Source of the DNA: Malacoraja senta
Lineage: Eukaryota
Reading direction: 5' to 3'
DNA: 64,000 nucleotides
NCBI GenBank assembly: GCA_038087875.1
Contig: CM075990.1
Span: forward strand, 5,520,001-5,584,000
In this document: piece by piece, positions 3,696-61,093 of the stretch
How positions within the stretch are numbered: position 1 is the stretch's first letter
How the letters are laid out: every line of letters begins with the position of its first letter
Notes under the pieces: generated by a model
The model's database searches: none
Told to the model about the DNA's origin: nothing
The model's input: the letters and a program-made list of their open reading frames with translations, nothing else
Translations under genes and position numbers: made by a program

Positions 3696-5765
3696 AAGCC
3701 CTGTCTCACTGTGCGAGTTGACCCACGAGTGACCTAGAGTGAAAGACTCGTGGATGCGTACGAGACTCCAAGTTTATGATCAAGTGTTTAACCGAGTTCC
3801 CACGGGTATGACTCAAGTTTGCCGTTAACTGTCATTTCTGCGATGTTCCAAGTTCGTCTCCCGAGTTACCAAGTTCCTTTCCCGAGTTACTCTTGAGCCA
3901 ACCTTCAATGAAGGTCTGTTTTAATAAGCAACATCTCCATCCTGCGGCTTTGAGTTAAAGATAGAATTCAGCGCGGCCGCATCTATTGATGTGACCTACA
4001 AAGGGAAAATGCCAGTGCCAGGGCAGTTGTACTGATGATTTGTTTGAAACACACATCACGTAGTTAGAAGATCAGCAGGCGGAGGTTTGCTATATTTTAA
4101 TTGAATTTACTGCCAGGTCTACACACTGCGGGGAGACTGGAGATGAAATCTTTGAATGTGGACGGATGCGCACATCAGATTGTTGGGAGACGGAGCTCAG
4201 GGTTCGCCTCCTGAGCTGCTTTGGTGCCCAGGCGTGAGTTGAGGTGGAGGGAGGTTGGGGGGGGGGGGGGGGTTCAGGTCAAACTCACCCATTTGACAGA
4301 GGCAGATGATTACGAGAATCCAGTGAGACTTGGACTGCATGGAGAGCCGAGACTGCCCCGCTGGTGGCCAACTTCCCCCTGTCCTCCATCGCCGCTCCCA
4401 GCCGGCCGGCAGGAGCTGTGCATGGAGCCCGCCACCTGAGTCGAGTCTGACTGCCTGGGCAGCCTGAGGGAGGCAGATGCACCCTGCCCGGGGAGAGGCC
4501 GCGGAGAGACTGCGGGGGGAGTACCTCACTCTGACTGTGATAGGGAGAGACAGAGGCACACACACACACACACACACACACAGTGTGGAGTTCCTCTGAC
4601 TGACAGACTGTGTGTGGGTGTGGGGGGTGGGACAGAGAGAGAGACACACACACACACACAGGCAGCGTGGAGTACCTTTAACTGTGTGTGTGGGAGAGAG
4701 AGACAGAGGCAGACACACACACACAACAGTGTGTACCTCAGTCTGTGTATGTGTGTGTAGGGGAGAGAGAGACACAGAGACAGTGTGGACCTCTGACTGT
4801 GTATGAAGGAGATGGGGAGAGAGACAGAGAGAGAGAGGCACAGAGGCAGTGTGGTGTACTTCGGCGTGACTGTGGGGGGGAGAGAAAGAGCGCACAGGAC
4901 CTCGGTCTATCTGTGTGTGTGGGAGGGAAGAGAGACTAAGCAGAATACATCGGTCTTATTGTGTGTGGGGGAGAAAGAGAGAGGTGGGGGGGGAAGAGAG
5001 AAATGGGGGAGACGTATATACACACAAAGCAGAGTTTTACTGTGTATGTGGGAGACACAGATGGACTTACACAGATGGACTTACCTCGGTCTTACTGTGT
5101 GTGGGAGAGGGGGAGAAAGAGACGTACACTCACAGAGGCAGAGTCTCTCAGCCTGTGTGAGAGGCAGGGAGGGAGAGAGAGACACTCACACACACAAGGT
5201 GGATGTGAAATCTCACCTGCCTGTTTCAGTGACCGGCACCCGCCGCTAGTGAATGAAGACACCCCCATCTGTCTCCCCCTCCTCTCCCTCCACTCTCCAC
5301 CCTCTCTCCTCCACCCCCCCTCCCTCCTCCAACCCCCCCCGCTCCCTCCTCCAACCCCCCCCCTCCCTCCTCCAACCCCCCACTCCCCCCCAATTTGGAA
5401 ATGTCATCCCATCACCCATTCCTTCTCTCCAGAGATGCTGCCTGCCCGCTGAGTTAAAGAGTTCCCACGGTAAACTCACGAGTCACTAAGGTAAACGCAC
5501 GGGCCACTACGTTCTTACAACGTGTTTAAATGTTTCAAATTTTAACCTCAAGAGTACATTTTACTCGTGGAAAAGTTTAAACATGTTTGAATTTTTCAAG
5601 AGTTAACAAGTGTCACGGGTACCTGCCGTTAGCGCCAAGAGTCGCTAAGTTGCGTCCACGAGTTCCGACGTTCCCGCTACGTTAATCGTACGTGATTACC
5701 ACGAGTTAAATTTGTTTTAAGCTCGGGGTACCTCGTGGGTCAGCTCGCACAGTGAGACAGGGGTT
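3696..5765. mobile_element. 2.07-kb non-autonomous PIF/Harbinger-like TIR element
   Basis: TIRs AAGCCCTGTCTCACTGTGCGAGTTGACCCACGAG / CTCGTGGGTCAGCTCGCACAGTGAGACAGGGGTT; TAA/TAA TSD. Interior has GC-rich and (CA/GA)-rich sequence plus a Penelope-like piece. Confidence 0.8.
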
Positions 5766-6614: not shown

Positions 6615-7590
6615 GACACAAAGTGCTGGAGTAACTAAGCGAGTCAGGCAGCATCTCTGGAAAACATGGCTAGGTGGGTCGGGACCCTTCTTCAGACTGG
6701 TTTTTGGGGTCGCGGGAGAAGAAAACTGGAAAAGAGGAGGGCAGGACAAAGCCTGGCAGGTAATGGATGAGGGGGGGACAGGTTTGATAAGACGGATAGT
6801 GAGACAGAGTTGAGAAAACAGAAGGTATAACACCAAACTATCGATTGGTTGCGAATTGTAAAGTCAGTGGAAGCGGTGTAGGTGGAGGGGGAAGGGAGTT
6901 AGTTACGGGAGCCCGTCCAGACGGGGCACTGGGGAAGGTGGGGGGAGAAGAAGTGTGGGGCAGCACGGTGGTACAGAAGTAGAATTGCTGCCTGACAGCG
7001 CTTGCAGCACCAGAGACCCGGGTTCAATCCCGTGTGCTGTCTGTACTGAGTTTGTACATTCTCCCCGTGACCCTCGTGGTTTTCTCCAAGATCTTTGGCT
7101 TCCTCACACACTCCAAAGACATACAGGTTTTGGCTTGGCATAAGTGTAAATTCTCCCTGGTGTGTGTAGGACAGTATTAATGTGTGGGGATCACTGGTCG
7201 GTGCGGACCCGGTGGGACGAAGGGCCTGTTTCCGCGCTGTATCTCTAAACTAAACTAAACTAAGAAAGGGATCTGTGGCGGAAAAAGGGCAGTGAGAAGG
7301 GGGGGGAGTGGGAGGGGGTGAGGGGGGGTGGGAGGGGGTGTGAGGGGGGGGGGGTGGGAGGGGGGTGGAGAGAGGGGGGTGGGAGGGGGGGTGGTTAGAG
7401 GTTAACTGAAATAGGAGATTTCAATGTGCATACCATTGCGTTGTAAGCTACCCAAGTGGAACATGAGGTGCTGTTCATCCAGTTTGTGTGTGGTCTCACT
7501 CTGGCAATGGAGGAGGCCCAGGACAGAAAGTTCCGTATGGGAATGGGAAGAAGAGATCGAGCCCTAGTGTTCAGCGAAACAGTCACAGTC
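6615..7590 (-). mobile_element. Decayed Penelope-like 3' end interrupted by a V-SINE
   Basis: pLTR piece near 6615-6700; GIY-YIG C-terminal remnant near 7395-7590. Confidence 0.65.
6957..7263 (+). mobile_element. V-SINE (HE1-like), full length
   Basis: tRNA-like head with A/B boxes, central V-domain-like segment, (AAACT)n tail. Confidence 0.85.
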
Positions 7591-9007: not shown

Positions 9008-9839
9008 ATGTGGGTAAAATAAGGACAGATTCAGTTTAATATGGAGATTTGTGAGGTCATCCTGCCCAGATCCAAGAAAGAAGAACTGGAACATTTTCAT
9101 AATGGTGAGAAACTGGAAACTCTGCAGGTGAAAGGACACCTGGGTGCCCAGGTGCAGAGATTTTAACGTGTAGTGCACAGCTTGAAAAATGTAATCAGTT
9201 TTTAATCTTGATCTGATTGGATTTAAAATCTTCTTATGCAGTCCACATCACAAGATTAGAAATTGTTCAGCCAGTGCTGAACACACTTCTCGGCATCTGC
9301 ATACAATGGCGTCTTGCGCTACTTGGGCTTCTTGTGCGTAGTGGTGGAAAGATTGGTGGAGACAGGGCTGCGACGTGAACACTCTTTCCGTGACCCCAGA
9401 TTTAAAATGTGCAATGCCTTGGTTTCATAACCATTGATCAGGCTGCATTTGGGACACCTAAGGACACAACGAGCTGGAGTAACTCAGCGGGTCAGGCAGC
9501 ATCTCTGCATCGCTCCCATTACAGAAGTGATGTGGATGCTTTGGAGGGCATAAAGAAGAGGACCAGGGTACAGCCCAGATAATTAACTATTAGGATAAAT
9601 TGGATAAATTAGAAAGACACAAAGTGCTGAAGTAACTCAGCCAGTCAGGCAATATCTCTAAAGACATGGATAGGTGGCGTTTTGGGTCGGGATTCTTTTC
9701 TCCAGCAGTGCTGCCTGACCCGCAAAATTACCCCAGCACTTTGGACTTTTTTTGTAAACCAGCATCTGCAGTTCCTTGTATCTTGGATAAACTTGAATTA
9801 TTTTCTCTGGGGCTTTGGAGGCTGAGGGAAGACCTGTTA

Positions 9840-14048: not shown

Positions 14049-14420
14049 CTGTCGGAGTGAAAGAATGCCAGTGAACTGCATAGAAGTATCTTCTTGATGC
14101 TAAACCTTTATAAGTCTTAGGCTAGAATGTTAATTCATTGCATCACGCGCATGTGGTTCACAAAAGCCCATCAGGGCCAGTCCGATAGTTACGGAAGAAA
14201 GTGAAGATAGACACATAACTCAGTGGGACAGGCACCATCTCTGGAGAGAAGGAATGGGTGACGATTCGGGTTGAGACCCTTCTTCAGACAGAGACTCCAT
14301 GAGTCTCATACTCAATGTCTCGACCGATGAAGGTGAACATACCATACAACTCTCACTAAAATTACTACTTCTGCTGACTATATCACTACTTCTTGCTCAT
14401 ATTATTACTACAGCTTGTAT

Positions 14421-14492
14421 AGGGAGCACCTGGATTTGAACTGGGGACCTCTCGATCCACATTCAAATGCTCTGCCACTGAGCTATAACCCT
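14421..14492 (-). pseudogene. tRNA-Cys-derived pseudogene (72 nt)
   Basis: AGGGTTATAGCTCAGTGGCAGAGCATTTGAATGTGGATCGAGAGGTCCCCAGTTCAAATCCAGGTGCTCCCT aligns end to end with vertebrate tRNA-Cys(GCA). The acceptor stem has two mismatches, the anticodon loop is altered, and no T-run terminator follows. Confidence 0.8.
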
Positions 14493-14885
14493 CAAACATA
14501 AAGGTCATGATTGTCTCCGCAACTTCACATGTGGTCATTTCCATGAACTCATATTGCACCACTTTCTGCTTCAATGCATAGAAACTGGATTGTACAACTC
14601 CATGTATTTTTGCACCATATGATCCCACCCTGTGGGGCCGAGGTGTTTAGTTTGTAAAGTCTGCAATTTTCGCTTTCAATCCTTTGTCCATGCAGAAAGA
14701 GCATCTCCCTGACCAAGAGAGGACCCCCTGAGCAATTAAATTATCTGCTTCTCCTTGGATATCACATTTATCCTATCCTCCACGCACATATCCTCCACAC
14801 CTGCTTCTGACAGTAACCCTACTTCATGTACCATGAACCCAGTGGACTTTGCTTGGGAGTGAATGCATAACATCTGACAGCTCAC

Positions 14886-32800: not shown

Positions 32801-33769
32801 AGCTTGCTCCTTGTTATCTGGATACCTTACTACAATGAATGTATGTTATTTTCCTCATCCTGACCTTCCCCATATCGATTTGTGAACTGTGGGAAGAAGT
32901 ATGTTGTTTATGACAACCGCACTGGGAGTTACATGTAAACTAAAGCTTAGTAACAAGCTACGTAATGCAGTTTGCTAAAACAACAACACGTTTGAATATG
33001 CACACTTGGAGGAGACAAACAATGACCTGTTTGTTCATGGCTTTTAATGATTCAAGAACATAGGTGATCTCGCTGTACCTCGCGGGATAGGTTATGGATA
33101 TATTGGATATAAAGCTTATAACTTACCAAAAAAATCCAAAATAAGTCTAAGGACTGGGACAAATTTCAAAACATTTCTTCAGCAAAGGAGGATAAAGGGA
33201 GAACAGAAAACAAACAGGCTAAATAAAAATAGCGTAGAAAGGAACTGCAGATGCTCGTTTACACCGGGGAGAGACACAAAATGGTGGAGTAACTCAGTGC
33301 TGGAGTAACTCAGTCCTTTCTTCGGACTGGATGGGTCTCGACCCGAAACGTCACCTATTCATTCTATCCAGAGTTGCTGCATGTCCCGCTGTGTTACTCC
33401 AGCATTTTGAGCATAAAAAGAGATTGTGCAGATATATAACAAGAAAAAGACCAGCAAAAGTTAAAGTAGAGAGCAAAAGGTAAATCACAGTGAGAAATTA
33501 GAAATTGTATTTAGGATTAAGGAAATTAAATATATATTTCACAATAGAAACACAGGAATCCTCGTGGAAATAAAAGTATTATTGGAGAAATTAATGGACC
33601 TATATCTTAGAGTCATTAAGGAGATAACTATGGAGCTGGTTGAGTCGCTAGTTGTTACCTTCCAAAGTTTTGCAGATTGCAGAATGATTCCCATAGATTG
33701 GAAGGTAGAAAATGTAACTGCAACAGGAAACCATAGCCTGAACACCAAGGAAATGTTGGATATAGACCC

Positions 33770-34810
33770 AAATGCCCGGAGTAATTCAGCGGGTCACACA
33801 GCTTCTCTGGAGAAAAGGGTTAGGTGGCATTTCGGGTCAAGATCCTTCTTCAGACTGAGAGTCAGGGGAAAGGGAAACGAGAGGTATAGACGATGATGTA
33901 GAGAGATATAGAACAAATGAATGAAAGATATGCAAAAAAGTAACAATGATAAAGGAAACTGGCCATTGTTAGCTGTGGCCAAGGTGAAAATGAGTATAGA
34001 CAATGAGACTCAACAAGATGACTTTGAAGCTGGTACGACTTGGGTGGGGGAGGGATGGAGAGAGGTGGTTACTTGAAGTTAGAGAAATCAATTTTCATAC
34101 CACTGAGTTGAAAGCTGCACAAGCGAAAAATTAGATGCTGTTCCTCCAATTTGCATTTGGCTTCCCTCTAAAAATAGAGAAGGCCTAGGACAGAATGGTC
34201 AGCGTGGGAATGGGAAGGGTAATTAAAGTGTTTGGCAACTGGGAGATCGGGTAGGTCCAGGCGGACTGAGTGAAGGTGTTCGCCCAGTCTACGTTTGGTC
34301 TCGCCGCTGTAGAAGAGTCCACACTTTGAACAACTGATACAGTAGATGAGGTTGGAGGAGGTGCAAGTGAACCTCTGCCTCACCTGAAAGGGCTGTCGGG
34401 GTTCCTGGACAGTCGAAGGAGGAGGTGTAGGGACAGGTGTTGCATCTCCTGCAGTCGCAGGGGAATTTACCTGGGGAGGGGGTGGTTTGGGGGGGGGGGG
34501 GAAGGGACGAGTTAACCAGGGGGTTGTGGAGGGTACGGTCTCTGTGGAAGGCGGAAAAAGGTGGAGATGGGAAGATGTGACTTGTGGTGGGATCCTGTTG
34601 GAGGTGGCGAAAATGTTGGAGGATTATGTGTTATATGCAACAGCTGATGGGGTGAAAGGTGAGGACTAGGGGAACCCTGTCCCTGTTGCTACTAGGATCG
34701 GAGCTGCGGGGTACCGAGAAGACACTTGTGAGGGTCTCGTCTATGATGGAAGAGTGGAACCCCCATTCACAATCTTGGATGTCCTGGCATGGAACACCTC
34801 ATCTTGGGCG
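33770..34810 (-). mobile_element. Penelope-like element 3' part
   Basis: QRFTCTSSNLIYCISCSKCGLFYSGETKRRLGEHL (34168-34383) followed by the terminal repeat. Confidence 0.85.
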
Positions 34811-37579
34811 CAGTTGCAGCCAAGAAATGTATTACAGGTCTATTACAGGTCCACCACCAATTTTCCGGCATGCTTAGTTCTGGAGCCTTGCTGCATTAAT
34901 CATTATACCGGACCAACAGAGGTCACGGCATTTCCCTTGTCGGTACAATTAAACATTCTGGACTCTTGATTCACGTTGGTGAAAAAAATGGGGTATTTTT
35001 TAAATGGTGAGAAATTGAACCTCTTTGGTGTTCTGAGGGACAGCGTGTCCTTGTATACATTGTCAACATGCAGATACGGAAAACAATGGGGAAGGCAAAC
35101 GTACTTGTACTTTATTGCAAGGGGTTTGACTCTAAGAGGAGAGATTTCTTAATCCCATTATGTTGAGTCCAGATAAGATCAATGAGTTTGGATAAGAGGG
35201 GGCATTAAGTAGGGGGTATTAAGTCTGAAGAAGGGTCTCGACCTGAAACGTCACCCATTCCTTCTCTCCAGAGATGCTGCCTGTCCCGCTGAGTAACTCC
35301 AGTATTTTGTGTCTATCTTCGATATTCAGTAGATTGGATAAGGGGCCGTAGTTCCAGAACAAGGGCTTGGTCATTCAGTGCACAAATGTGAAAGATTTCC
35401 TTCACCCATATGGTGGTGAATCTTTAGAATTCCATATCTAAGAAGGTTGTGGAGGCTCAATTGCTCAGTATCTTCAAGAAATAGATCAATAGATTTTTGG
35501 ATATTCAGGTATTCTCGGGATATGGGGTTAGTGTGGGAAAGTGATGCGGTAAGAGATCAGCTATGATCTTATCGAATGGAGACGGTGACCCTCTCTTATT
35601 TTTATTTATCATTACTTTACTTTTTACTTTATTGTCACATGTGACTAGTGACAGTGAAATTCTTTGTTTTGCATACCTAAGGTATGTAAAGAGTTGCCAC
35701 ATAAAGGGCGCCGACCATGTTACAGCGTTTCCCATGTCTAATCCTCCGTTGTCCTCCCCCCTCCCCCCTCCTCTTGGCAGTTCACTGATACCGGGTCCTC
35801 GTTGTTCTTCCCCTGCTCCCCAAGCCAGGTCCTCCTTTGTTCCTGGCGGCGTGTCCTCCGGCTCCCACGAGGCCCAACCTCAACCACCGACGCCATCAAC
35901 GACCACCGGACCGACCTCCTCGTCGATCGCCGACGCAACCTCCCCAATGGCCGCAGCCGGGTCCGCTCCTGGCGACTCCCCGACGACTCCACAGGCCCTG
36001 TCAATACACGTCCCTGGGGTCCGTCGAAGAATTATGTTGCTATTTACAGTTATTATTTAACTAGAAAACTGAGATAGTTTAGTTTAGCCTTATTTATTAT
36101 TATCATATGCACCAAGGTACAGTGATAAGCTTTTGTTTGCATGCTAAGCAGTCAAAGCAGTATTCTTTACCATTCCCTTGCACAGGTCTGAGCTTGTGCA
36201 CTGTTTTGGGTGTGGAAAATAAATCAACTAGATGACCATCAGACTCTGCAAAAAAGCTGTACAATTAATCACTAATGTCAGGACTAATATCAGAGCTAAC
36301 AACCCTAACTACAGGGACAATGTCCTCGGACCAGCCATCTTCAACTGGATGAAAGTTGAGAGGTTAGCATGAAGGCACAGAGCCTGTTGCAGGCACAGTA
36401 TCTGCTCTCATAGAACACAGAGCAGTAGAGCATAGGAGCAGGCCATTCAGCCCTCAATATCCATTCCCAAATAGGTGCCAAGTTAAAATAACCGACACGA
36501 GAATCATTTGCCTCCATTCCCTGCTCATCTAAATGTGCCTATCTAAAACACCACTATTGTATCTGCTTCCACCACTACCCTTCTCCAGTTCACCTGTACT
36601 ATATATGAAACTTTATGGGGTTATAAAGTCTTATGGGGTTAGAAGCCATAAAGTATATGTATCACACAGAATGGACAATTATGTAGTGCCCTGGGCATTA
36701 TTCAACGTACACCTGGAATGCCAGAGCTAAAGTCCAAGGTACCACCAGCCGATAATGAGGAACAAATGGTTCCAGCAATATTCTGCTCCAGATAGGGTAG
36801 CTTTAGACATTTATCTGGCGAGGTTATGCAGGGCTTGGTTTATTTGGGAGTCAGTGTGAGTTATGGAAGGTTTAAGTTGTGCAAGGCAACTTCTGCCACA
36901 GTATCTTCCAGCTGGCAGAACGGTCTCCTGAGGCATGTTATGGGTGTTAACACACACTGCACCCAATCATTCATTGGCAGAACAACTGCAGGGAATTGTG
37001 CAAATGTCATCATTCCTTTGGTCGTAATATTTGAACTTTCAATTATGTATAGAACTGCACAATCTGTCCCTGAAACACACGGCAATCAATGGCATATTTC
37101 TGAGATTTGTACAGTTAATTATTATTATGATTATCAATATAAATATAAAATTTCCAGAAATTCTTAAGAACATACGGCAGTGAATGTGGTGAGGATTGCT
37201 GTAATGTGCAACCTTAGTCTTTTTTCTATTCTGAAATATGCTCTCTGAATGTTACTCTGTGATAGAATTCTCATAGTTTTCTCTGCTGATCTCCTTCTGT
37301 TACAGCTCTACAATCCTCTCATTTATCTGGCTAATCTCAGCCTCATACCCTTTCCAAAATCTAATGTACCATTTGCAGCAGCCAAGGCTAGAAGCTCTGG
37401 AATTCCTTCCCTGGTCCTCTCTGCGACTCCATCTTCCTTTCTGCCTTTAAATGCTCGTTAAAACTTGAGCCAAGCTCTTAAAACCAAGCTCATGAGTTAT
37501 TTTATTTCTTTAAAGGTGTTTCTAAATCAGTGCTTGACCAAAAGATGTTTAATATTGCGCCAATGACCGCTTATCTTAC

Positions 37580-38125: not shown

Positions 38126-38838
38126 ATTGCCAATTGATTTGAATTTCCTACACATCTCTATTTGGAAAAATACTTTGTTCCCCATTGTTTAGACTGTGTT
38201 ACAAAAATAATTCATCCTACCTGAAAGGGGATTATAATTTCAAATGGGCAATGGTTTGTAGAATTAGAAATGGAGACATTTATTTGGTGTGTCACAAGAA
38301 CTGAATGAGTGCGTCAGGGAATGTTGCTGAGTGGTCCATTCCAGACTGCAGGAGCACATGCTGAGGGACTCACTGATGCTTGGTGTAGCCAACGTGAAAG
38401 CTCTGTGGTGGAGGAGCACAGTCTAGGGTCCATCTGCTGGGCATTGAGCGGTAGAGTCTGGTGGGGACAATGCCTCACCCCAGGGGACCACCTGGGTGGC
38501 AAGTGTTCAAGAAAGAACTGCAGATGCGGGAAAAATCGAAGGTAGACAAAAATGCGGGAGAAACTCAGCGGGTGAGGTCTGAAGAAGGGTCTCGACCCGA
38601 AACATCGCCTATTAATTCGCTCCACCGACTGAGTTTCTCCAGCATTTTTGTCTACCTGAGTGGCGAGGATCTTTTGTTTTGCTTAATGATAGATGCAAAC
38701 ACTCTACGTACGACAATAATTTACAGGTGATGAGAAAGTCTGAAGCACGGTTTTAATTTTGTATGTATATATTTTTAATTTTTAATAAAGTTTATTTTTG
38801 GAAATTTAAAACAAGTTTTATCATAATAATATACTCAC

Positions 38839-42162: not shown

Positions 42163-42444
42163 TTCGCTGAAAAAGAAAAAACACTCACATTAGAATAGTG
42201 AAGGGTGTGTACAATAATCTTATTTAACATGGTATCACATCCTGAAGTTGAGCCAAAGTTTCCAATCAATGGAGTACATTTGAAATACAGCAAATGTTAT
42301 AATAAATTGTAGAACCAAAGACTACAGATGCGGCTTTACAAACAAAGACACAGTGCTGGAGTAACTCAGTGGATCAGGCGGCATCTAAAGAAGTGTCCCG
42401 ACTCAAAACGTCGCCTATCCATGTTCTCCGGAGATGCTGCCTAA

Positions 42445-42670
42445 AGGGCCTGTCCCACTTTCACGACCTAATTCACCACCTTTTTTACTCGTGGACATTT
42501 TTCATCATGTTGAAAAAACGCCCCGACCTACTTGATGCCACGAGTACCTACGACTAGCATCACGACCTATCTACGACCAACCTACGACCTCCTACAACCT
42601 CGTGAAGACCATGCTGCGAGTATGAGTCAAGGGCAAACTCGGCAGAGGTCATGAAAGTGGGATAGGCCCT
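42445..42670. mobile_element. PIF/Harbinger-like MITE inserted in a Penelope terminal-repeat fragment
   Basis: AGGGCCTGTCCCACTTTCA...TGAAAGTGGGATAGGCCCT; TAA/TAA. Removing it restores gatgctgcc-taa-cacgctgagttactcc. Confidence 0.85.
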
Positions 42671-43390
42671 TAACACGCTGAGTTACTCCAGCATTTGTGT
42701 CTTTTTTTTGTTATGAAAATTAGATTGTTAGGAGTGGGGGTTGGGAGGTATTAAATAAGATATCATTGAGAGTCCTTAAAATTGATTCAGATTTCTCATC
42801 AAATATAGAAAAAGAAACCTTCTGCTGAATACTTCAGTTGCCCTCCCTTAGTGGTTCACAAAGGTCATTTGGGAAAGAGTCCTGACACTGTGTAGTCTAT
42901 CCATTTCCAGACCTGCAAAATAAAAATGTGAACATTTGCAACACAAAAGCAGATCCACTGATCCACTAAGCTGATCTTTATGCTCCACACCTGCCATTGT
43001 GCTGCATAGAACATACTGTAGAACAGTACAGCACAGGACCTGGCACTTCGAACCAAATGTCTCCGCTGAACGTGATGCCAAGATAAACAAAACTCCTTGC
43101 CTGCACATGATCCACAATCCTTCCATTCCCTGCATATCCATCCCTCCATATTTATCTCACCCTTTGGGAATATCTATTCCTTTCTTCCACATGCACACAC
43201 ACATGTATATATACATTTTCCAAAAGTCATTGGTTTTGTTTGTTTCAATTGCACCTTGTGTTATCAATTTCAATATTCAACATAATTTCTGGGTATACTT
43301 CTTTCTCCTACAGTTCCAATTGGATCTGTTGTCAATTGTTATATTTATATCGTCAGTTTTTAGTTTGCTCACAAATGGAAAAATCACTAC

Positions 43391-43890
43391 ATACCTGCAC
43401 CTCCTCCAACCTCATCTATTGCATCCACTGCTCTAGATGTCAGCTGCTCTACATCGGTGAGACCAAGCGTAGGCTTGGCGATCGCTTCGCCGAACACCTC
43501 TGCTTGGTCCGCAATAACCAACCTGAACTCCCGGTGGCTCAGCACTTCAACTCCCCCTCCCATTCCGAATCCGACCTTTCTGTCCTGGGCCTCCTCCATG
43601 GCCAGAGTGAGGACCACCGTAAATTGGAGGAGCAGCACTTCGTATTTCGCTTGGGCAGTTTGCACCCCAGCGGTATGAACATTGACTTCTCTAATTTCAG
43701 GTAGTCCCTACTTTCTCCTCCCCTTCTCAGCTCTCCCTCAGCCCACTGGCTCCACTTCTTCCTTTCTTCTTCCCGCCCCACCCCCCTCACATCAGTCTGA
43801 AGAAGGGTTTCGACCCGAAACGTTGCCTATTTCCTTCGTTCCATATATGCTGCCTCACCCGCTGAGTTTCTCCAGCATTTTTGTCTACCT
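43391..43890 (+). mobile_element. Penelope-like element 3' end: GIY-YIG endonuclease C-terminus plus terminal repeat
   Basis: TCTSSNLIYCIHCSRCQLLYIGETKRRLGDRFAEH...VAQHFN...RKLEEQHFVFRLGSLHPSGMN, stop at 43704, then the pLTR with a hammerhead-like core at 43797-43824. Confidence 0.9.
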
Positions 43891-45654
43891 TACATCTACT
43901 TCCATTGTTTTTAAGATCTAATGTATATAAGGCCACTGCTTAACCTATCTATTTAAGCAAAACAAACCACTATCTATTCAGTCTTTCATCTTGAAACAAT
44001 TGTTCAGTTCTGACATCATCCAACTATTTATTCACCTTCCCTAATGCCTCTTATATCCATCTTCCAAAACTGGTCCAAGTATTCCAAGTACAAGTTAATG
44101 GGTGGTTACATAAAGTTAACGCAACTTTCTGCTCTTGAATTCCATTCTTCTCAAGAATTCCCAGAGCATTGTTTGAATGTTGTATGGTCTTATTAATTAG
44201 TCTTGTTATATTTAATAGCTTGTAGATATGAAATCGCACATTTCTTTGTGGCTGAAGCCCATTTAAAATCACATCCAATTTGAAATGGCGAAATGTTTTT
44301 GTACAAGATGAAAATTGTCAGGTTGGAAGCATGAATGCTGTGACAGCTGAGGCTGTTGTTTGGCCAGTGCAAGCCATGACAGAAGGTATAACGGGGTGGT
44401 CTAGGGAGCAGAGATCATGGTTGAACAGATGCAGAAAACTTTCATAAGATTATTTCAATGAATGCCCAGGTCATAAGACACAGCTATAGATGGAAGGAAT
44501 GACACTCCACTTTAAAAATTAAATGTTTTGTTGATTGCTTTTTACTTTGGAAATTATCAAAATTAGCCGTCCAAAACTATGAACTTTCCAGGGCCTTTTC
44601 TCCTTCCCTACGGTGACATTGGTGACATTATGGTGAAGTAATTTTAATTAATTTTTTTATCTACAGCTGTAACTATATTAATGACTTGTTTTTAATGATT
44701 ACATCTATTCCTGCTGAGTGAATCCCCAACATGGGCAATTCCGTTACTTTGAAGTTGAGTAATGTCTCTTTGTGAAGGTCGATTAAGACATTGTTATGAT
44801 AGAAACCATGAGATTTTGCATTTAGAATGCTCTTTTGATGCAGCTATTACTGTATATGTAATTAGGCATGGTTTCAAGGCATTATTTTATAGCTCGGAAC
44901 AGCTCCAAGCCCATAGACAGTGATTTTTTTTGGTTTAATTATTCCTTTTATTACCACATTCAAGTAGACACAAGCAATATCTCAATTTCTAATCAGAGAT
45001 TCGGCAGGTCATGGAATCTCGCAGCGATCGTTGACCTTCTGACCACCTATCTAACAGCTAGGTTGGCATCTCACTGCTCTTTCTCCTTGCCACAGGGAGC
45101 TGAATCTGCCAACCGCCTCGCTGACAGAAGGCCCCCTCTTCCAGTTCCAGCATTCACCAGTGCATCTAAACATCGGAGTGGCAAGAAGCCTCAGCCCGAG
45201 TGAGACCCCAGGAAGGAAAGTGGCTCACTGGCTTAGTCTAGGACTGTTGGTGGGGTGAAGGAATGGGAGGATGTGGATCACCCTGAATGAAGGTGGGCGA
45301 GAGGGGAGGGAGCCCCGCGGTAACTGGGCCCAGTTTTAGAGAGAAACAACATAAAGTGCTGTAGTAACTCAGACAACTGAATCAGTTTGAAGAAGGGTCG
45401 CGATGTCATCTATCCATGTTCTACAGAGATCCTGACCCGCTGAAATACTCCAGCACTTTGTGTCCTTTTGCCTAGTAACTAGCATGAGCAGTCATCAGCA
45501 ATAATGGACACCACTCCCTCCACTATGGTCTGTTTACAGTAAACCCTCATTATAATGGACCATAGCTACTCCAATTTAGGTAACGTCCCATAATAACTGA
45601 CTGACCCGCTGAGTTACTCCAGCACTTTGTGTCTTTTTATGGTTTATATTACTC

Positions 45655-46683: not shown

Positions 46684-47193
46684 CAGGGTGCTGTTGGTAA
46701 CGCTAGCAGTTTGCAAGCTGGAAATGTGGCCACGGATCAAGTTCCCACAGGGCAGAAGATGCCTGTTGACGTCGGTTGTTGCCCCATAGGAATAGATAGT
46801 CTGGAGAAGCATTTTAAATCTCATTTTATCATTCTTAATAATGAAGCTGATGTGAACAAATCTGTGCTGAGCCTACCTTGGGCTGATAATTATATTATTT
46901 TAAAATGATTTTACCACAGATGAGATTTTAAATGCTATTGACGGTTTTCAAAGAGATGGCTTGTCTCTAGATGGGATTTGCAAATTGAACATGTACATGT
47001 TAACCAGAATATATCCTTCCTCGTTTGGTAAAATTCCAAGTACTATCAAGAACGGCTGCCTGCAACCCCTCAGCAGCCAGCAAATCCACCCTGCTGGTGT
47101 TTATCAGTGTTTTGCTGATGATGGGGAAATCTGTGGAGAGGAATTATTTAATGCAGTCATTAATGTTTCCGCAGCAGCTTTAAGTTGCACTGG
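46684..47193 (+). repeat. Local duplicate of 50046-50428 joined to 50898-50992
   Basis: Direct by-eye alignment: near-identical ~310-bp core with more diverged ends. Confidence 0.9.
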
Positions 47194-47225
47194 ACAGCCC
47201 ACAGAAGCTTGCATGAATGGTGTAA

Positions 47226-47712
47226 AGGGCCTGTCCCACGAGCATGCGACTGCATGCGGCAAGCGCGACCAAACCGGAAGCGGGGGCTGCGCGGGGGTCG
47301 CGCGGAGGTCGAGTGATCCCCATACAGGGCCGGTCCCACCAGCATGCGACTGCATGCGGCGAGCGCGACCAAACCAGAAACGGGGGCCGCGCGGAGGTCG
47401 AGTGAGTGACGTGAAGTTCGAGCGAAGTCCGCGGGAGGTTCGCGCATGACGTACGGCGTCAAGACGCTGCGTAAAGCGTCGAGACGCTGCGCGCGCCCGT
47501 CGAGGCGGCTGCGGGCCAGCAGGCCGCTGCCGCGCGGAATTTTTGAACACTGTCAGTTTTTCGGAGCCCCGCGCGATGTCGGGACCAGCTCCGCACAACT
47601 CCATACGGCTCCGGCGATCGAAGTGGACCGGCCCAGCGAGGGCCGTACGGCTCAAGCGACCATGTTAGGTTGCGCTCGCCGCATGCAGTTGCATGCTCGT
47701 GGGACAGGCCCT
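47226..47712. mobile_element. CpG-rich PIF/Harbinger-like MITE (487 bp)
   Basis: TIRs AGGGCCTGTCCCACGAGCATGCGACTGCATGCGGC / GCCGCATGCAGTTGCATGCTCGTGGGACAGGCCCT; TAA/TAA; the left end is duplicated internally. Confidence 0.88.
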
Positions 47713-49046
47713 TAAGAAGGATATCATCAATCATACTATCCAGCCTCTTCCTGCACATCAGATGCCTCTTGCCCCTCCTGTGGAAGACTCTGTGGTTCGT
47801 ACACTGGCGTCAATAGGCTCCGCAGATCCCAAAGACAGCCATTGCCCTGAGCGACCTCGGACACACTGTGATTAAACCCGGTTCTAGGTGACCACTACTG
47901 GCCAATGATGCTCGGCCATCCACCCTCTGCAAGTTGCCAGGAGCCCCCCCGACAATACGATAGTGGGCATGCAGCCGAGCGCTGCCAGGAACTGGGGCCG
48001 ATCCAGGTGGAGAGGTCTGGGAACACGTACAACTGTGCAGGAGATGCATTGCCAGGACCAGGAAGCAAGGCCAGATAGATATGCAGCTGGAGTACAGTGG
48101 AACAAGGCGACGTGGGTGGTCGGGGTCAGCTGTCTTCATGGTTCAATCGTACTTTACACTCACATGTACCTAGGTACAGTGAAATTCAATTTTCGCATTC
48201 CAGTTCAGTAAAAATCGTTTTATACACAAACACAATCTTACTTAAGTACAAGGGTGTAGGAATAGCAGATTAACTGAGACAGCACAAGAGTCACCACGTT
48301 TCCGGTGCCATGTTGTATGATTCATGTGGAAAGTTGTCAAAAATGGAGCATGGGCAGGATTGGGGCCAGATACGCAAATGAGAACTGGGCAGGAGACTGA
48401 AGCAGAGGAACGGGGCCTGATGGACAGGATCATGTGTGTGGCCAAGACCAAAGGCACCAGCCTGGACAGTGTGTACAGTGAGAGAGCGGGACGTAAGAGC
48501 TGGAAATCTGTGCAAGGTCAGTGATGGTCAGTTGGGTGTGGGGGGGGGGAGGAGGAGGGGGGGGGAGGGGGTGGTGGGGATAGAAGTGAGGAAGATTGCG
48601 CTGAGCCACGCACTTGTAAGAGAGAGGGAGAGAGTGAAAGGTACCAGCTAAGTGACACCTACATGGGTGCCACCGACCGGTGAACAGTACCTCTTATCAC
48701 TGGTACCAAGAGCTTGCTTTGTGAAACCTGTGTGACAGAAGCTAACAACAACTATGCTATTTTAAAAGAAACTGCACATAAACAATTTCCACGCCATTGA
48801 ATCAAAGGATCATACAGCATGGAAACGGCCCTTCGGCCCAACTTGGTCATGCCGATCAAGATGCCCCATCTACACTAGATCGTTCTGGACCGCACTTAGC
48901 CCATATCCCTCCAAACTCGAAGAGCCGAATGGCCTACTCCTGCACCTATTGTCTATTGTCTATTGTCAAACCTGTGCTATCCATGTACCTGTCCAAATGT
49001 CATTTAAATGTTGTCATAGTACCTATGTGGTATCTATGGTACACTG

Positions 49047-51350
49047 TACACATGTCACAAACGCCTGTTCTTTTCGTAAGGATCTTCAGAAAGAATTTAA
49101 GATTTTGAAGAAAGGCATGCCAGTTGGTGGTAATAACATTAATTTGTCAGCAAGGCGGAGGAAACGTTTCAATTTCTCATGACATCTTCAAATGCAAGGA
49201 CGTTGGATAAATTGAGCAACTCCAATTGTTTCAGGGGTTTTTCGTTGCAAAGCAAATCTACAGAAGATAATTATGCTCAGGGTGTGAGGGACAGTTTGTG
49301 TGCCATGCTGTGTTCCGAGGTCAGTTTTCAGAGCTCGTGATTATACATTGCATTTGATTAAAGAAATGCAGCCTAAATGTTCTTCTGCATAGACAAAATC
49401 TGAGGCAATTGTTTGCAGCTTGTTGACGTCATTGTCAATGGAAGAACTGGATAATTTAAAGGAATGTTCATTTATCTCACTTAGATTTGGTTCATCAGAC
49501 AGAATAAGCCACAAGTGATTACAGATCCCGGTTTATGAGTTTTTCGAATGATTGGGGTGGAAACAAAAATCACAGGGTTTATTTCTCTGTCAGGCAAAAC
49601 CTTTGCCCCACCGAGTAGTCCTCTCCATCAACTGAACAGGAAAAAACATCACAGTGAAAAGCTTGTTGAACTAAAAGCAGAATTATCAAAGTACAACGTT
49701 TGGCCATGCTGAACAAGCTGCAGGAGTTTCCTGGCAAAAAATTGCAGATCAAACCAGGGAATTAAATATTTGGCAGACAAATATGCTGGAGAAACTCAGC
49801 GGGTGAGGCAGCATCTATGGAGCGAAGGGAATAGGAACGTTTCGGGCCGAAACCCTTCTTCAGACATTGGCTTTGCTTGAGGTGCTCACGTTGCACTTAA
49901 TCATTGAGGAAAAGTTGCCTGTCTTTTTCTTCACATAAATTCTGCCACGTTTACACAGTTTGTGTTGAAGAACAGATTGATTTTTTGCCAATTTGTGAAC
50001 CTTGTGTATTCTAAATAGCTGGAACACAGGTTCTCCTGTGTCACAGCAGGGTGCTGTTGGTAACACTAACAGTCTGCAAATTGGAAATGTGGCTACGGAC
50101 CAAGTTCCCACAGGGCAGAGGAATAGATAGTCTGGAGAAGCATTTTAAATCTCATTTTGTCATTCTTAATAATGAAGCTGATGTGAACAAATCTGTGCTG
50201 AGCCTACCTTGGGCTGATAATTATATTATTTAAAAATGATTTTACCACAGATGAGATTTTAAATGCTATTGACGGTTTTCAAAGAGATGGCTTGTCTCTA
50301 GGTGGGATTTGCAAATTGAACATGTACATGTTAACCAGATATATCCTTCTGGCGTTTGGTAAAATTCCAAGTACTATCAAGAACGGCTGCCTGCAACCCC
50401 TCAGCAGCCAGCAAATCCACCCTGCTGGTCTCCAAACAATTGTACACCATGTGCAGGATGTACATAAATCAGGTGTTCGTAACCTGGCAAGAACATGTAT
50501 GGCAACACAAGGCAGACACAGAGTGCTGGTGTAACTCCACGGGTCAGGCAGTATCTCTGGAGAAAAAGGATAAGGGACATTTCGGGTCGGGACCCTTCTT
50601 CTGACTGTGTGCAGCACAAGGACCCAAACTCATGAACATTTTGATACTTGCAGAGCTGAAGGCGTATTTCTATTGCAAGGAAAGTGCATTTTACATGCTG
50701 AGAAACATTTTTATGACACCTACACCAATTGTGGTTTGCTTTTGCAAGTAAACGAAGAGCCATCTTTTAAAAGATCACGTTGTTTGCTGGAAAAATTGAA
50801 TCGCCCAGTGACTGAAGTTACATTGGAAATCCACGACCTTTGAGAAAACTAGCCGAGAGGCTCACAGGATGGCTTGTCATAGCAGACACAAATATATTTT
50901 ATCAGTGTTTTGCTGATGAGGGGGAAAGCTGTGGAGTGGAATTCTTTAATGCAGCCATTAATGTTTCCACAACAGCTTTAAGTTGCACTGAACTTTGGAC
51001 TTTGAATAATAGAAGCAAAATAGTGGAGCCTGCATGTTAAATATGCAAAAAAAAAATTATGTGCAGTTGCGTATGTGACAAATAAAGCACTTCTAAACTA
51101 TTCAACTGAGATCTATGGAAAATGACAAATTTGTCCACAGAACAGTTTAAGGGGTCTTGTTGAAGAACATGCCCAGAGTAGAATGATACACAAAACAGCC
51201 TGCCGCTTGCCAATAAGAACTGGCACCCAAGTTTTTATTGATATAAATTGTCTATTTGTGGAATGGACAAATGGAAAAGCAATAATCTGCAAAGGCAGAC
51301 TGATGTGTTTGGAATACCAATTTCTGGAAGGAGATACAATGATTTTTTTC
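49047..51350 (+). pseudogene. Decayed hAT-superfamily transposase fossil with later insertions
   Basis: Collinear degenerate motifs: CSFRKDLQKEFKILKK, EGQFVCHAV, SSA*TKSEAIVCSLL..LS.EEL..LKECSFISL, ELKAY(F)LLQGKC, and a C-terminal dimerization-like segment. Many stops and frameshifts. Confidence 0.6.
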
Positions 51351-53650: not shown

Positions 53651-54416
53651 CGGACACATTTTTAGCTTTAAATACTGTTTTAAGATGTTTCAAACGGCTG
53701 GCCATTTATTATTTTGTTTCTGTGCAATAAATGGCAAGCAAGAACAACTATTTGTGGATGATTCAAATAAAACCAATTTAGTTGTCAGACCACCAACATT
53801 GACCTAACACAGACTCACATAGTAAAGGGTTTGTGTTACTCCTCGTGGCATATTTCCATCAGTTGAAAGTCTTTTTTTAATCATTGTCTTTAATAAAGAC
53901 AATGGGACACAATATAATCCGGTGAAGCAGGAAATCTATCCGGTGTAGATTTAAAATTAGCCCTTAATGTTTTCTATTTTATGCTTACAATGTGATAGTT
54001 TAACATTAAAAAAGCAGCAATAGAATCTGAGAAGATCTAGTTAATTGACTTTGAATTTAAATAATGGGAAGACTTTGGCAATTCTTCGAGACCAACCAAA
54101 CCTCTAATTTCCAGTCCAGTATTATCACCCCTCTCTCTCCACCATCTGAGGTTGAGCAGGATCTGATGCAGCGCTTTGACCCAAAACATCAACAATTAAT
54201 TTCCCCCCATAGATGCTGCTTGTCCCACTGAACTCCTCCAACAGATTGCTTGCTGCTGAAGACCATTCATAATTTTGGCATCCTATTTTGCCAGGAGCAG
54301 AGTTTCTTAACCATTATCATCTGCTTCACTAAAGTTGTCTCCATAACATTGACCCATCTCATGCCTCACTTAATTTCCTTTTTGAAATCTTTGCCAATTG
54401 TTTTATCTATAGGCAC

Positions 54417-55500: not shown

Positions 55501-57107
55501 ATAGAATGAACTCTTTCTGTGTAATCCTTGCCAGCCTCTTGTCTTCCAAACTCATCCTTTCTGCCCTAACACTCTAAGAAAAACAACTTGCTTTAAAGTG
55601 GTACTTTTATTTCATTATAAAATATTACTCGCTTCAGAGTAGTATTATCAAATAAAAATTGGTAAAGCTATGTAAAGCAATATTAGAGCAGTTGAAATCA
55701 AGCTTGCAAAAAAAGCTGTAGATAGCACTGCATTTGGATCAATCACTTTGGCATTTTTGCAATGAAGCCATAATAGTTCAGTGCAACACTTGGTTATCAT
55801 TAAGAGACTCTAACATTAAGATCCATTTTGAATATGCTGAAATTTAGCTGATAATTTAATTAATTTTCCCTCCAGATTAATTTAGGATGTTGCCTTGTGT
55901 AGCATTGGGAGTCTGATATGGCATCTATCATTACTCAAGATGTCCCACATCACTGTGCAGCCAGGAAAGAAATACTGAGATGTAGTCACTATTGTAATGT
56001 GTGACATGGAACAGGTAATCCTCACAGGACAAATTCACATAGACTATGATAAAATAATTGAACTTATTTTTCTTTTAGGGAAGTTGGATGAGGTATAAAT
56101 ATTGGCCAGCAAAACTGCCCTCCCTTTTCCAAACAGCATCTTTGGATTTATTACGATAGACACAAACTGCTGGAGTAACTCAGCAGGACCTGCAGCATCT
56201 CTGGAGAGAAGGATTTATTACATTCTTTATTTATTTGGATTTATTACGTTCACTTGAGACGGCATTTGGGGGCTCAACCAGAATACACTCCCTCACTGTA
56301 GAAACAAAGAACTGCTGATGTTGGTTTATACCAAAGATAGACACAAAGTGCTGGAATAACTCAGCACATCAGGCAGCATCACTGGAGAAAAAGGATAGGC
56401 GATGTTTAGAAGATAGACAGAAAATGCTGGAGTAACTCGGCGGGACAGGCAGCAGCTCTGGAGAGAAGAAATGGATGATGTTTCAGGTGGGGACCCTTCT
56501 TCAGACTCTTGCTTAGTGTACTCACCCTATTATTTGCACACTTAAATGGGGATTGAACCCACATTTGGCACAGAGCAATGAATGGTGTAAGAAAGAACTG
56601 CAGATGCTGGTTTAAATTGAAGGTAGACACAAAATGCTGGAGTAACTCAGTTGGTGAGGCAGCATCTCTGGAGAGAAGGAATGGGAGATGTTTTGGGTCG
56701 AGACCCTTCTTCAGACCAGTGAATGGTGTAACTGGGCCACACCTTCCACCACTGGTATGCTGCATGACCGGATCACCCAGCCCATGCTGACACAAATTAC
56801 TCCTCCCCTCCAAAAGGCTTTTACTCTTAAGGTCACTGGGTCATAGAGCACAGAAACGGGATTTTGCCCCCTCGCCCCGTATCCATGCCGACCATGAAGT
56901 AACAATGATTCTAATCCCATCTTTGAGCACTTGACCCATAGACCTCCACAGAGTGTTTCAAATGCTCATCTATGTACTTCTTCTTAAGTGTATGAAAGGA
57001 CTTGCCTTCACGACCCTGGGGAAGTGTTTTCCAGATCTCAATCACCTTTGGAGTGAAAACAAATGTTTTCAAACCCCTTCGAAATCTCCTACCCTTTTCT
57101 TTATACA

Positions 57108-58189: not shown

Positions 58190-59400
58190 GAATACGTGAT
58201 GGAAGAGAAGGGCCCCTTTAAAAGATTACACCCATGCATGAGCACAAATGAAGATTTGTTGTGTGTACGCCTTCCCTCCCGTCTCACTGCAAGTAGGCGG
58301 TGCTGCCTGGCTGGAGTTGGTTCGCTGCTGGGTTGAGGTTGGAGGTGTGCTGAAGGCTGAAAGAGGGGTGAACAGGGTGCGATTTAAAGCATTAAACTTT
58401 TTGTTTTTTGATTTTTTTATAAAAATAACTACATTTCAGAAAAGATGTCTGCAAGTTGCCAGCAAAGCCAATGCCGAGTGATTCCCACCAGGACAGTGGT
58501 TCTGAACGATACAACGCAGCTACCTCGTGATTATTGCACTACACCGGGAGGAACGCTGTTCTCCACCACTCCCGGAGGTAAATCCATGTTGGCGATCAGT
58601 AAATGCAACCTTGCTGGGTTGTGCTTTGGCTTTTATGTCTTCAATAAATCAGGCAAATGCACATGGGCCTGGTACGAGTACTTCCCTTTAAATCCGTTTG
58701 TTAAAAAAAAAAAAAAGAGTGGGTGGAGAAGCTGTAAGACAACTGTGCGATTGCACAAGGAAACTTAGTACTGGGTTAAAAATTAGCTTGGTTTGCTGAA
58801 CATTTGCTGCTGTTGCGCCGAGTTGCTCGGTTCCGTTCGCATAATAAACAAACCAGTGTGCAGGCCGATTTGGCAAGAGCCTTCACCTCGTGTTGCCGAA
58901 CCTGAGCGGAGTTAACTTTTCACAGCCTGCATGTTTTATTTCCCCCCCCCCCCACCCTCCTTTGCAAATTGTAAGTGTACCGTGGTGTAATCACAATTAA
59001 TGCAGCTATGCGAGAATGCTACACACAATTTCTTGCATTAAACAGCTTTATTTGAAATGCACATTTCAGGACTAAATTCGCTGCTCGAATTCGGACCGGA
59101 TTGGGTTAATTTCCTGTTTGTTGCAAACACTCGGGTCTGTTAACGGTGCTTCAATGAGCGTCTTTAATGCGGGTTATTTGGCTTATTTTTGCTTCTGCAG
59201 GGGGAAATTAACGTGCATGCATTTGTTTTTGCTCCCCCCCCCCCCTCCCCCGAGGTTGGATTGCATGTCTTGTACTCGTGATCCTGTCACGTATAAAGCG
59301 AGTCAGCAACACCCGCCTCTTCCCCCTCGGCCAAAGCCTTGCCTGTCCATTAATTCCTCGCCATTTGCCTGAATCGCGCAGAGAGCTGCTTTAAGGGACC
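58190..59400 (+). promoter_or_regulatory. Probable promoter/5'UTR and proximal intron 1 of the 4E-BP gene
   Basis: Repeat-free stretch with visibly more CpG than its flanks, surrounding the first coding exon. The TSS cannot be placed from sequence. Confidence 0.45.
58445..58577 (+). CDS. EIF4EBP2: Eukaryotic translation initiation factor 4E-binding protein, coding exon 1 (most like 4E-BP2; paralog assignment tentative)
   Basis: [44 protein letters not shown](G) closely matches the 4E-BP2 N-terminus (RAIPTRTV...[21 protein letters not shown]), including the T37/T46 TP sites. It ends at a phase-1 donor G|gtaaat at the conserved position. Exon 2 (TRIIYDRKFLL) is not in the window. Confidence 0.9.
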
Positions 59401-60238: not shown

Positions 60239-61093
60239 AAGGTAGACACAAAATGCTGGAGTAAGACTAGTGGGAGAACTGGGAAGGGGACGGAGAGAGA
60301 AAGCAAGGGCTATCTGAAGTTAGAGGTCATTGTTCATATCGCTGGGGTGTAAACTACCCAAGCAAAATATGAGGTGCTGTTCCTCCAATTTGCGCTGGGC
60401 CTCACTCTGACAATGGAGGAGGCCCAGGACAGAAAGGTCAGATTGGGAATGGGAGAGGGAGTTGAAGTGCTAAGCCACGGGGAGATCAGGTAGGTTAAGA
60501 CGGACTGAGCGGAGGTGTTCAGTGAAACGATCGCCGAGCCTGCTCTTGGTCTCGCCGAGGTAGAGAAGTTGACACCTGGAACAGCGGATACAGTAGATGA
60601 TGTTGGAGGGGGTGCAAGTGAACCTCTGCTTCACCTGGAAAGACTATTTGGGTCCTTGGATGGAGTCTAGGGGGGAGGTAAAGGGACAGGTTGCAGGGGA
60701 AAGTACCTGGGGAGGGGATGGTTTGGGTGGGAAGGGACGAGTTGACCAGAGTTTCGAAGGGAATGGTCTCTGCAGAAAGAGGTGGAGATGGGAAGATGTG
60801 GCCAGTAGTGGGATCCCGTTGGAGGTGGCAAAAATGTTGGAGGATTGTATGCTGTACGCGACGGCTGATGGGTGGTAGGTGAGGACAAAGGGGACTCTGT
60901 CCACGTTACGAATGGGGGGGGGGGGTAAGAGCGGAGCTGCGGGATATCGAGGAGACTTAGCGAGAGCCTCATCTATAATGGAAGAGGGGTACCCCATTCC
61001 TTCTCTCCAGAGATGCTGCCTCACCCGCTGAGTTACTCCAGCATTTTGTGTCAACCTTCGATTTAAACCAGCATCTGCAGATCTTTCTTACAC
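60239..61093 (-). mobile_element. Penelope-like element with inverted terminal repeat, in 4E-BP intron 1
   Basis: GIY-YIG and linker remnants (GYPSSIIDEAL..RVPFVLTYHP); inverted pLTR at ~60990-61093; 15-bp TSD ATCAGTTTAAAATTG at 60224-60238 and 61094-61108. Confidence 0.85.

Follow-up and report, generated by a model that had tools for sequence, protein, structure and literature searches.

A putative minimal hammerhead ribozyme in the terminal repeat of a Neptune-type Penelope-like element from a skate-like fish

Results

Features of the locus

The window, i.e., the whole stretch of 64,000 nucleotides analyzed here, contains the 3′ end of a Penelope-like element (PLE) followed by a putative hammerhead ribozyme. 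The features of this focal copy are given below.

43393–43704 (+): GIY-YIG domain and stop codon, the end of a 5′-truncated Neptune-type PLE reading frame from which the reverse transcriptase (RT) is gone (tblastn, Pfam, homologues)
43705–43793 (+): pyrimidine-rich 3′ UTR, differing among subfamilies (pyrimidine fraction 0.84 at −56 to −7)
43792–43797 (+): TCAGTC, which we take to be an initiator-like motif; includes the 5′ strand of helix I (G43795, T43796) and is the start edge of most short copies
43797–43804 (+): hammerhead core C3 to A9 (CUGAAGA) and the extra A (sequence; listed in PMC4209133)
43805–43816 (+): stem II, GGGU/ACCC, 4 bp, with G10.1-C11.1 and a UUCG loop (sequence)
43817–43824 (+): G12, A13 and A14, the palindrome ACGU (helix III of a dimer) and H17, a U (sequence)
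43825–43826 (+): 3′ strand of helix I (G, C), forming U·G and G-C pairs only
43827–43891 (+): remainder of the terminal unit, with a pyrimidine tract able to sequester the core and a downstream hairpin

Several searches identified the carrier element. By tblastn, 43393–43701 matched P0004 at 66%, and Pfam detected GIY-YIG in the focal frame with an E-value of 6.5e-4, below the curated cut-off. The focal fragment of the reading frame had 22 homologues, and the closest proteins were from Leucoraja erinacea (82%, the best match, and 77%), then Rhinoraja, Mobula, and Hypanus. When the fragment was aligned with 12 of these 22 homologues, GIY-YIG was matched in 11 of the 13 members and RT in three; an RT upstream of a C-terminal GIY-YIG is thus known from homologues, while the window itself has GIY-YIG alone. 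The window holds five fragments of the reading frame, none with an RT core, and no full-length element. The focal copy is a dead insertion, 5′-truncated at 43393 and unable to move by itself.

A C-x4-CxxC linker is kept in the homologues and in a second copy in the window, at 33853, which also has a hammerhead after GIY-YIG and a longer UTR. Since a CX2-5CxxC linker before the endonuclease is described for Neptune, and also for Nematis and Naiad (PMC8557442), the linker together with the C-terminal endonuclease fits Neptune, a label that rests on linker and domain order rather than on an RT tree. Inverted copies and a tail of 30–40 nt are hallmarks of PLEs (PMC8557442); the 30-nt tail is nearly missing from the focal copy and is visible in other copies and as loose contig ends behind 43891. 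On sequence grounds, the motif is identified as a minimal hammerhead of the dimer type; it sits in the 3′ pseudo-LTR (pLTR) of a Penelope-like retrotransposon that belongs to the Neptune clade and comes from a skate-like fish.

The hammerhead core and its helices

The original prediction placed a hammerhead core at 43797–43824 (+), about 90 nt past the GIY-YIG stop. The letters there read CTGAAGA-A-GGGT(TTCG)ACCC-GAAAC-GT-T, a complete minimal hammerhead that lies 92 nt downstream of the stop codon (43702–43704) on the same strand. The published minimal hammerhead (min-HHR) family is defined by CUGANGA plus one extra base, G10.1-C11.1, GAAAN, a palindromic 15.2–16.2, and NUH (PMC4209133). The extra A after A9, which had been pointed out, is indeed present (A43804) and is a listed feature of that family rather than a peculiarity (PMC4209133). 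The G10.1-C11.1 pair of the focal copy is G43805-C43816, and the palindrome ACGT at 43820–43823 stands in place of helix III (15.2–16.2); from hammerhead numbering, the cut is predicted after 43824. The proposed identity, a minimal hammerhead of type I that lies in the terminal repeat of a Penelope element and has a palindromic helix III and a weak helix I, agrees with PMC4209133.

Helix I is as weak as had been anticipated, though not of the proposed 2–4 bp: both intact copies (43797 and 35225) have 2 bp, and the 4-bp helix at 38579 is made partly from flanking inverted sequence. At the focal copy these two pairs (U·G and G-C) sit at the bottom of the published range. As to the suggestion that the lineage might be degenerate, helix I is a weak extreme, yet the core is left untouched by the differences that separate master lineages.

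A min-HHR descriptor matched five loci in the window, compared to a mean of 0.46 (maximum 3) in 200 dinucleotide shuffles, and once the palindrome and two or more base pairs of helix I were also required, two loci (43797 and 35225) remained, compared to 0.015 (maximum 1) in the same test; since these loci are copies of one repeat, they are not independent. Rfam covariance searches at E ≤ 10 returned 11 hits in one scan and 8 in another, none of them to a hammerhead family.

Copies in the window

The claim that many more decayed copies are scattered through the window was confirmed. The terminal unit is represented by 54 fragments (24 on the plus strand, 30 on the minus strand), and core, palindrome, and 2-bp helix I are kept in two of them (43797 and 35225), both on the plus strand and 8.6 kb apart. 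Four further cores had been named; 35225 passes the strict descriptor, while 38579, 14287 (−), and 49863 (−) fail it. Eight head-to-head inverted pairs occur among the 54 fragments, and several copies carry the 30-nt tail. None of the eight same-strand neighbor pairs in the window has two intact cores, and there is no retrozyme-like tandem. A profile alignment of 51 fragments placed 39 in three subfamilies (7, 13, and 19 members) and left 12 unassigned; subfamilies A and C have long copies bearing the reading frame, and subfamily B has 13 members in the window and no long copy. The copies referred to below are:

35222–35317 (+): second intact core, a solo copy of subfamily B starting at −3, with a G10.1·U11.1 wobble
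38542–38655 (unstranded): head-to-head inverted pair; the core at 38579 has ACAT and has lost the palindrome
49774–49865 (−): solo copy of subfamily A whose core (at 49863) is intact; it lacks N1.1, and helix I is therefore 0 bp
14207–14289 (−): broken solo copy of subfamily B with U in place of A15.1 (GAATCGTC); fails the descriptor
56591–56716 (−): solo copy, about 125 nt long, tail complete, G12 mutated; the 12-nt direct repeat on its two sides is a likely target-site duplication
33762–34768 (−): longer PLE fragment of subfamily C that retains part of the thumb, the C-x4-CxxC linker, and GIY-YIG; its hammerhead is broken
60242–61055 (unstranded): PLE fragment with an inverted terminal unit (60992–61055, +) at its 5′ end; end of the reading frame at 60323–60994 (−), hammerhead deleted
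6615–7550 (−): PLE 3′ end with GIY-YIG tail (7408–7536), interrupted UTR, and a hammerhead with an 8-nt deletion

Two other loci were observed. At 54163–54248 (+) lies an older, more diverged copy of the terminal unit whose core reads CTGATG. At 42445–42670, an element with inverted ends, presumably a non-autonomous DNA transposon, splits a PLE terminal unit into 42386–42444 and 42671–42702.

Host genes and intron cleavage

Pfam scans found one host exon, the first coding exon of EIF4EBP at 58445–58577 (+) (E-value 5.7e-17), with acceptor-like sequence before its ATG and a GT donor after it. These scans covered 181 of the 187 non-repeat frames of at least 62 aa and two others, and two further frames of the 187 were scanned separately.

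It had been suggested that minus-strand copies might cleave the introns of host genes. Both copies named for this (14287 and 49863) are broken, and the host exon identified by Pfam is on the plus strand, so that the idea is without support here. More broadly, some genomic copies might cut host pre-mRNA to the benefit of the host. The 54,784 contigs aligned in one sequencing run (X1, below) speak of a very high copy number, which makes occasional intact pairs likely somewhere in the genome. Within the window, in contrast, two of 54 copies are intact, both on the plus strand, 8.6 kb apart and upstream of the EIF4EBP exon; 11 of 28 copies carry a mutated G12, and excess conservation of the core is not seen among the window copies. 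We consider useful cleavage of host transcripts very improbable.

Three further features were seen in the window. A candidate first coding exon (ATG, 33 codons, GTGAGT donor) may lie at 4289–4389 (−). The interval 47001–48000 resembles a CpG island (GC 0.59, observed/expected 0.97) and is possibly a promoter. A tRNA-His-like sequence at 14421–14493 (−) (ARAGORN; Rfam 34.3 bits) has mismatched stems and may be a pseudogene or the head of a SINE.

A candidate HDV-like ribozyme

The sequence at 9346–9397 (−) is a candidate ribozyme of the HDV-like CPEB3 type that lacks P4. It scored 23.4 bits against RF00622, under the gathering score of 35. Compared to the RF00622 consensus, L3 and the bases around P1.1 are identical, P3 is kept, and the seven pairs of P2 all form, four of them changed on both sides (by eye); P1 is one pair shorter, a 5-nt loop replaces P4, and NAA follows the catalytic C. 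It is a single copy in the window and the only match there to a double-pseudoknot descriptor, which was written post hoc and matched in none of 300 shuffles. A 15-mer scan of viral contigs for the motif gave at least 119 matches, which are uninformative because the pattern is too short. HDV-like ribozymes occur in retrotransposons. The CPEB3 ribozyme has been described as mammalian, and this candidate is possibly of more interest than the hammerhead.

Decay and selection

The proposed decay of the repeats at CpGs was borne out, with 68 of 265 letters at CpG columns changed. The catalytic G12, itself in a CpG, differed in 11 of 28 copies, compared to 14 of 47 at the G of a downstream CpG (p = 0.45); it decays at the CpG rate, and selection is therefore not visible in single copies. 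At non-CpG core positions, 11 of 158 letters differed, compared to 172 of 1847 downstream (p = 0.39). An initial test had given the core as conserved over its flank (p = 0.026), with edge columns 1–4 counted solely in copies that reach the start of the model; this result was dropped, since excluding those columns gives the value of 0.39. Two-sided changes among 18 aligned copies affected two pairs, compared to 2.3 in shuffles, and RNAalifold predicted no structure from the aligned copies. Genomic copies, the focal one included, decay neutrally.

We also compared the majority sequences of the subfamilies. None of 11 core columns differed, compared to 14 of 64 downstream (p = 0.11). Among lineage-level changes in positions 1–30, all five keep the fold (p = 0.03–0.04; calculated for transitions, post hoc, with about half of all transitions as the fold-keeping baseline). 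Four of the five lie between subfamilies (two loop bases, H17, and N1.1), and the fifth is the genome-wide 43813 A>G, which turns a U-A pair into U·G and was, among the variants listed, common in all four sequencing runs. A column 26 difference in subfamily B was left out of this count as CpG decay; if counted, it breaks the palindrome. These comparisons lend modest support to the view that the masters of three or more subfamilies preserved an intact hammerhead.

Folding and cleavage

In folding predictions for the monomer, the pyrimidine tract that follows the cut site pairs with the core to give an inactive hairpin. The predicted pairing probability of stem II was 0.02–0.06 for the focal copy, 0.00 for 35225, and 0.01–0.02 for subfamily A. 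The active dimer lay above two monomers by 10.5 kcal/mol in subfamily A, 6.9 in C, and 15.6–19.2 in B (with its CpG-decayed column), and by 5.9 and 6.7 kcal/mol in a distant metagenome element described below (L001); such models leave out tertiary contacts and protein. Cleavage, if any, would occur as a dimer through ACGU/ACGU, and it would probably need the protein of the element, because the RNA alone is predicted to fold into the inactive hairpin. In published work, min-HHRs cleave at low levels and as dimers only (PMC4209133), and the hammerhead of an Anolis PLE cleaves only with the protein of the element (PMC11167929). Given that requirement in Anolis, poor free folding does not imply a dead ribozyme.

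The ribozyme might nonetheless be dead throughout the lineage, masters included, and persist through overlap with a promoter or protein site or through the youth of the subfamilies. Such a history would suit the 2-bp helix I with its one weak pair, the upstream CAG common to the long copies that pairs in part only, the stem II probability of 0.01–0.02 in subfamily A, and the lineage-level p of 0.11 for core versus flank; moreover, one of nine Xenopus dimers cleaved and eight failed in a preprint that includes one chondrichthyan (bioRxiv 2026.07.22.740005). It sits less well with the five lineage-level changes that the structure tolerates, with published PLE hammerheads that include 2-bp helices I (PMC4209133), and with the Anolis hammerhead being active only when its protein is present (PMC11167929). 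We therefore regard the loss of activity in the whole lineage as doubtful.

The 5′ edge of inserted copies

The 5′ ends of the copies were numbered with C3, where the profile itself starts, as +1. A script counted 18 of 54 fragments starting at −5 to +3. After three ends based on microhomology were moved and one internally deleted copy was counted as run-through, 15 fragments started at −5 to +3, 11 at +4 to +12, and one at +27 to +31, the predicted cut site; four of the 54 run on into the UTR. The pile-up lies 1–5 nt before CUGA. The stop rate per base was 0.146 at this edge compared to 0.006 at the cut site, and the edge also exceeded +4 to +60 (p = 6e-10, with the edge window picked post hoc). 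Upstream of the solo copies, the sequence is for the most part not rich in pyrimidines and, except for inverted tails, shows no relationship between copies.

Contigs of four public runs, aligned to the locus at 80% likeness, showed the same edge. Such contigs are silent on expression and RNA ends, the UTRs of other subfamilies do not align here, and depth is not copy number; with these limits, the summed depth of 43800–43810 over that of 43778–43788 was 18-, 26-, 32-, and 37-fold in the four runs, and the bin 43800–43810 was 3.4–6.3-fold deeper than the best GIY-YIG bin. Among the largest piles listed, loose 5′ ends stood before 43791–43795 in all four runs, with at least 395 contigs loose before 43794 and at least 422 before 43795 in run X8. 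The loose ends before 43794–43795 agree with one another at 0.32–0.34, as expected of random flank. Inserted copies begin just 5′ of CUGA and not after H17, and cleavage does not set their ends. In the literature searched, which left most subscription papers, Repbase, and bioRxiv supplements outside, we found no earlier report of this pattern.

The alignments also contained contigs that jump back 38–39 nt across the hammerhead (43793–43831; at least one in X1 and at least three in X18), which would be hammerhead-only tandems. Many more joints connect 43831–43837 to 43796–43807.

Template of the solo copies

Element RNA would start about three bases before C3. [quoted passage not shown] Published precedents are that reverse transcription of a PLE can begin inside the RNA, at the tail (PMC11167929), and that Penelope of D. 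virilis has an internal promoter in its pLTR (PMC2377424). We judge the chances of this run-off account to be about even.

A broader proposal is that the 5′ edge of the hammerhead is itself the transcription start, set by an internal promoter with the initiator-like TCAGTC, and that the ribozyme acts as a protein-gated switch and not as a maker of template ends. Full-length elements would then begin at AGTCTGAAG and their RNA would be terminally redundant, so that a copy made from the 3′ tail would restore both pseudo-LTRs with no need of a tandem; primed at the 5′ tail instead, copying would yield the abundant solo copies of 100–130 nt. Helix I would be short because the RNA has just three bases before C3. 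We put this forward tentatively, as a possibility with the balance against it.

Solo copies might instead derive from dedicated non-autonomous masters, SINE-like or retrozyme-like, rather than from run-off of autonomous RNA. The solo copy with tail and 12-nt flanking repeat (56591–56716), the 13 members of subfamily B in the absence of a long copy, and the back-jumping contigs of X1 and X18 all point that way. Subfamilies A, B, and C share an identical 5′ edge, however, A and C have copies with the reading frame, and the window has no tandem array with two intact cores; on balance, an origin from dedicated masters seems rather unlikely.

The edge could also be a splice acceptor, like the intron end at helix I of D. 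virilis Penelope, for which there is published precedent (PMC4209133; PMC2377424). The pyrimidine fraction upstream is 0.78–0.84 in three long copies, and a pyrimidine tract followed by CAG|T fits an acceptor as well as an initiator. Splicing would predict a shared upstream exon, whereas the loose ends agree at 0.32–0.34 and only inverted tails are shared among the flanks of solo copies; moreover, a GT..AG joint is absent among the 15 joints listed. We think splicing a poor candidate.

Discussion

The explanation that best accounts for these findings, namely a PLE min-HHR whose genomic copies decay neutrally and whose templates would be uncleaved RNAs that start 5′ of CUGA, is in our view probable as a whole. 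The role of PLE hammerheads has been called unclear (PMC8557442), and the mechanism that regenerates pseudo-LTRs has been called not obvious (PMC2377424).

The ribozyme is of a known kind, in a fish group absent from the searched part of the 2014 survey of metazoan PLE min-HHRs (Cervera and De la Pena, 2014; PMC4209133): sharks, skates, Leucoraja, and Callorhinchus were not found in two searched supplement files (file 1 excluded). The skate motif has all core features of that family and likewise resides in a pLTR, mostly as single, truncated copies. It differs by its 4-bp stem II and its weaker helix I (U·G or U-A plus G-C). Among 44 rows inspected in the 2014 alignment, a 2-bp helix I occurs in six, all G-C (counted by eye; PMC4209133 supplement), and the skate helix is weaker than any of these 44 rows.

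Penelope of D. virilis shares the 2-bp helix I and a discrete RNA boundary, the end of an intron, at the 5′ edge of that helix. Its own features are a CC/GG helix I, a helix III with a 2-nt insertion, and a start site 46 nt upstream of the 75-nt intron (PMC4209133; PMC2377424). Non-LTR retrozymes (PMC7229834; bioRxiv 2026.07.22.740005) are, like the skate solo copies, non-coding, hammerhead-bearing units related to pLTRs; they form tandem arrays with mostly canonical type I hammerheads, whereas the skate copies are dispersed or inverted.

Among metagenome contigs, a scan with the exact pattern gave no match, while a protein-based scan yielded one locus (L001) from 104 candidate stretches, and a scan of viral contigs none from 13. 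In this distant element, a min-HHR with a 3-bp helix I follows GIY-YIG at the corresponding position, and there is an inverted copy; the two hammerheads, at 818–860 (−) and 1223–1256 (+), are U3 variants on either side of a GIY-YIG fragment.

A further parallel is the Poseidon element PAc of Anolis (Frangieh et al., 2024; PMC11167929), which shares the pLTR hammerhead and downstream tail. PAc belongs to Poseidon rather than Neptune, and its reading frame opens at stem II, where the skate element lacks an ATG. For PAc, cleavage aided by protein has been demonstrated, while the skate hammerhead is known as a DNA motif. In Anolis, elements with a catalytic mutation continue to insert, and the cut site was not the end of any RNA read (PMC11167929); neither system gives a sign that copies or RNAs end there, the skate side being known from DNA copies. 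The 5′-end pattern of the skate copies argues against cleaved RNA as the template, in agreement with the Anolis work (PMC11167929), and a genome with very many copies allows template ends to be read from DNA alone.
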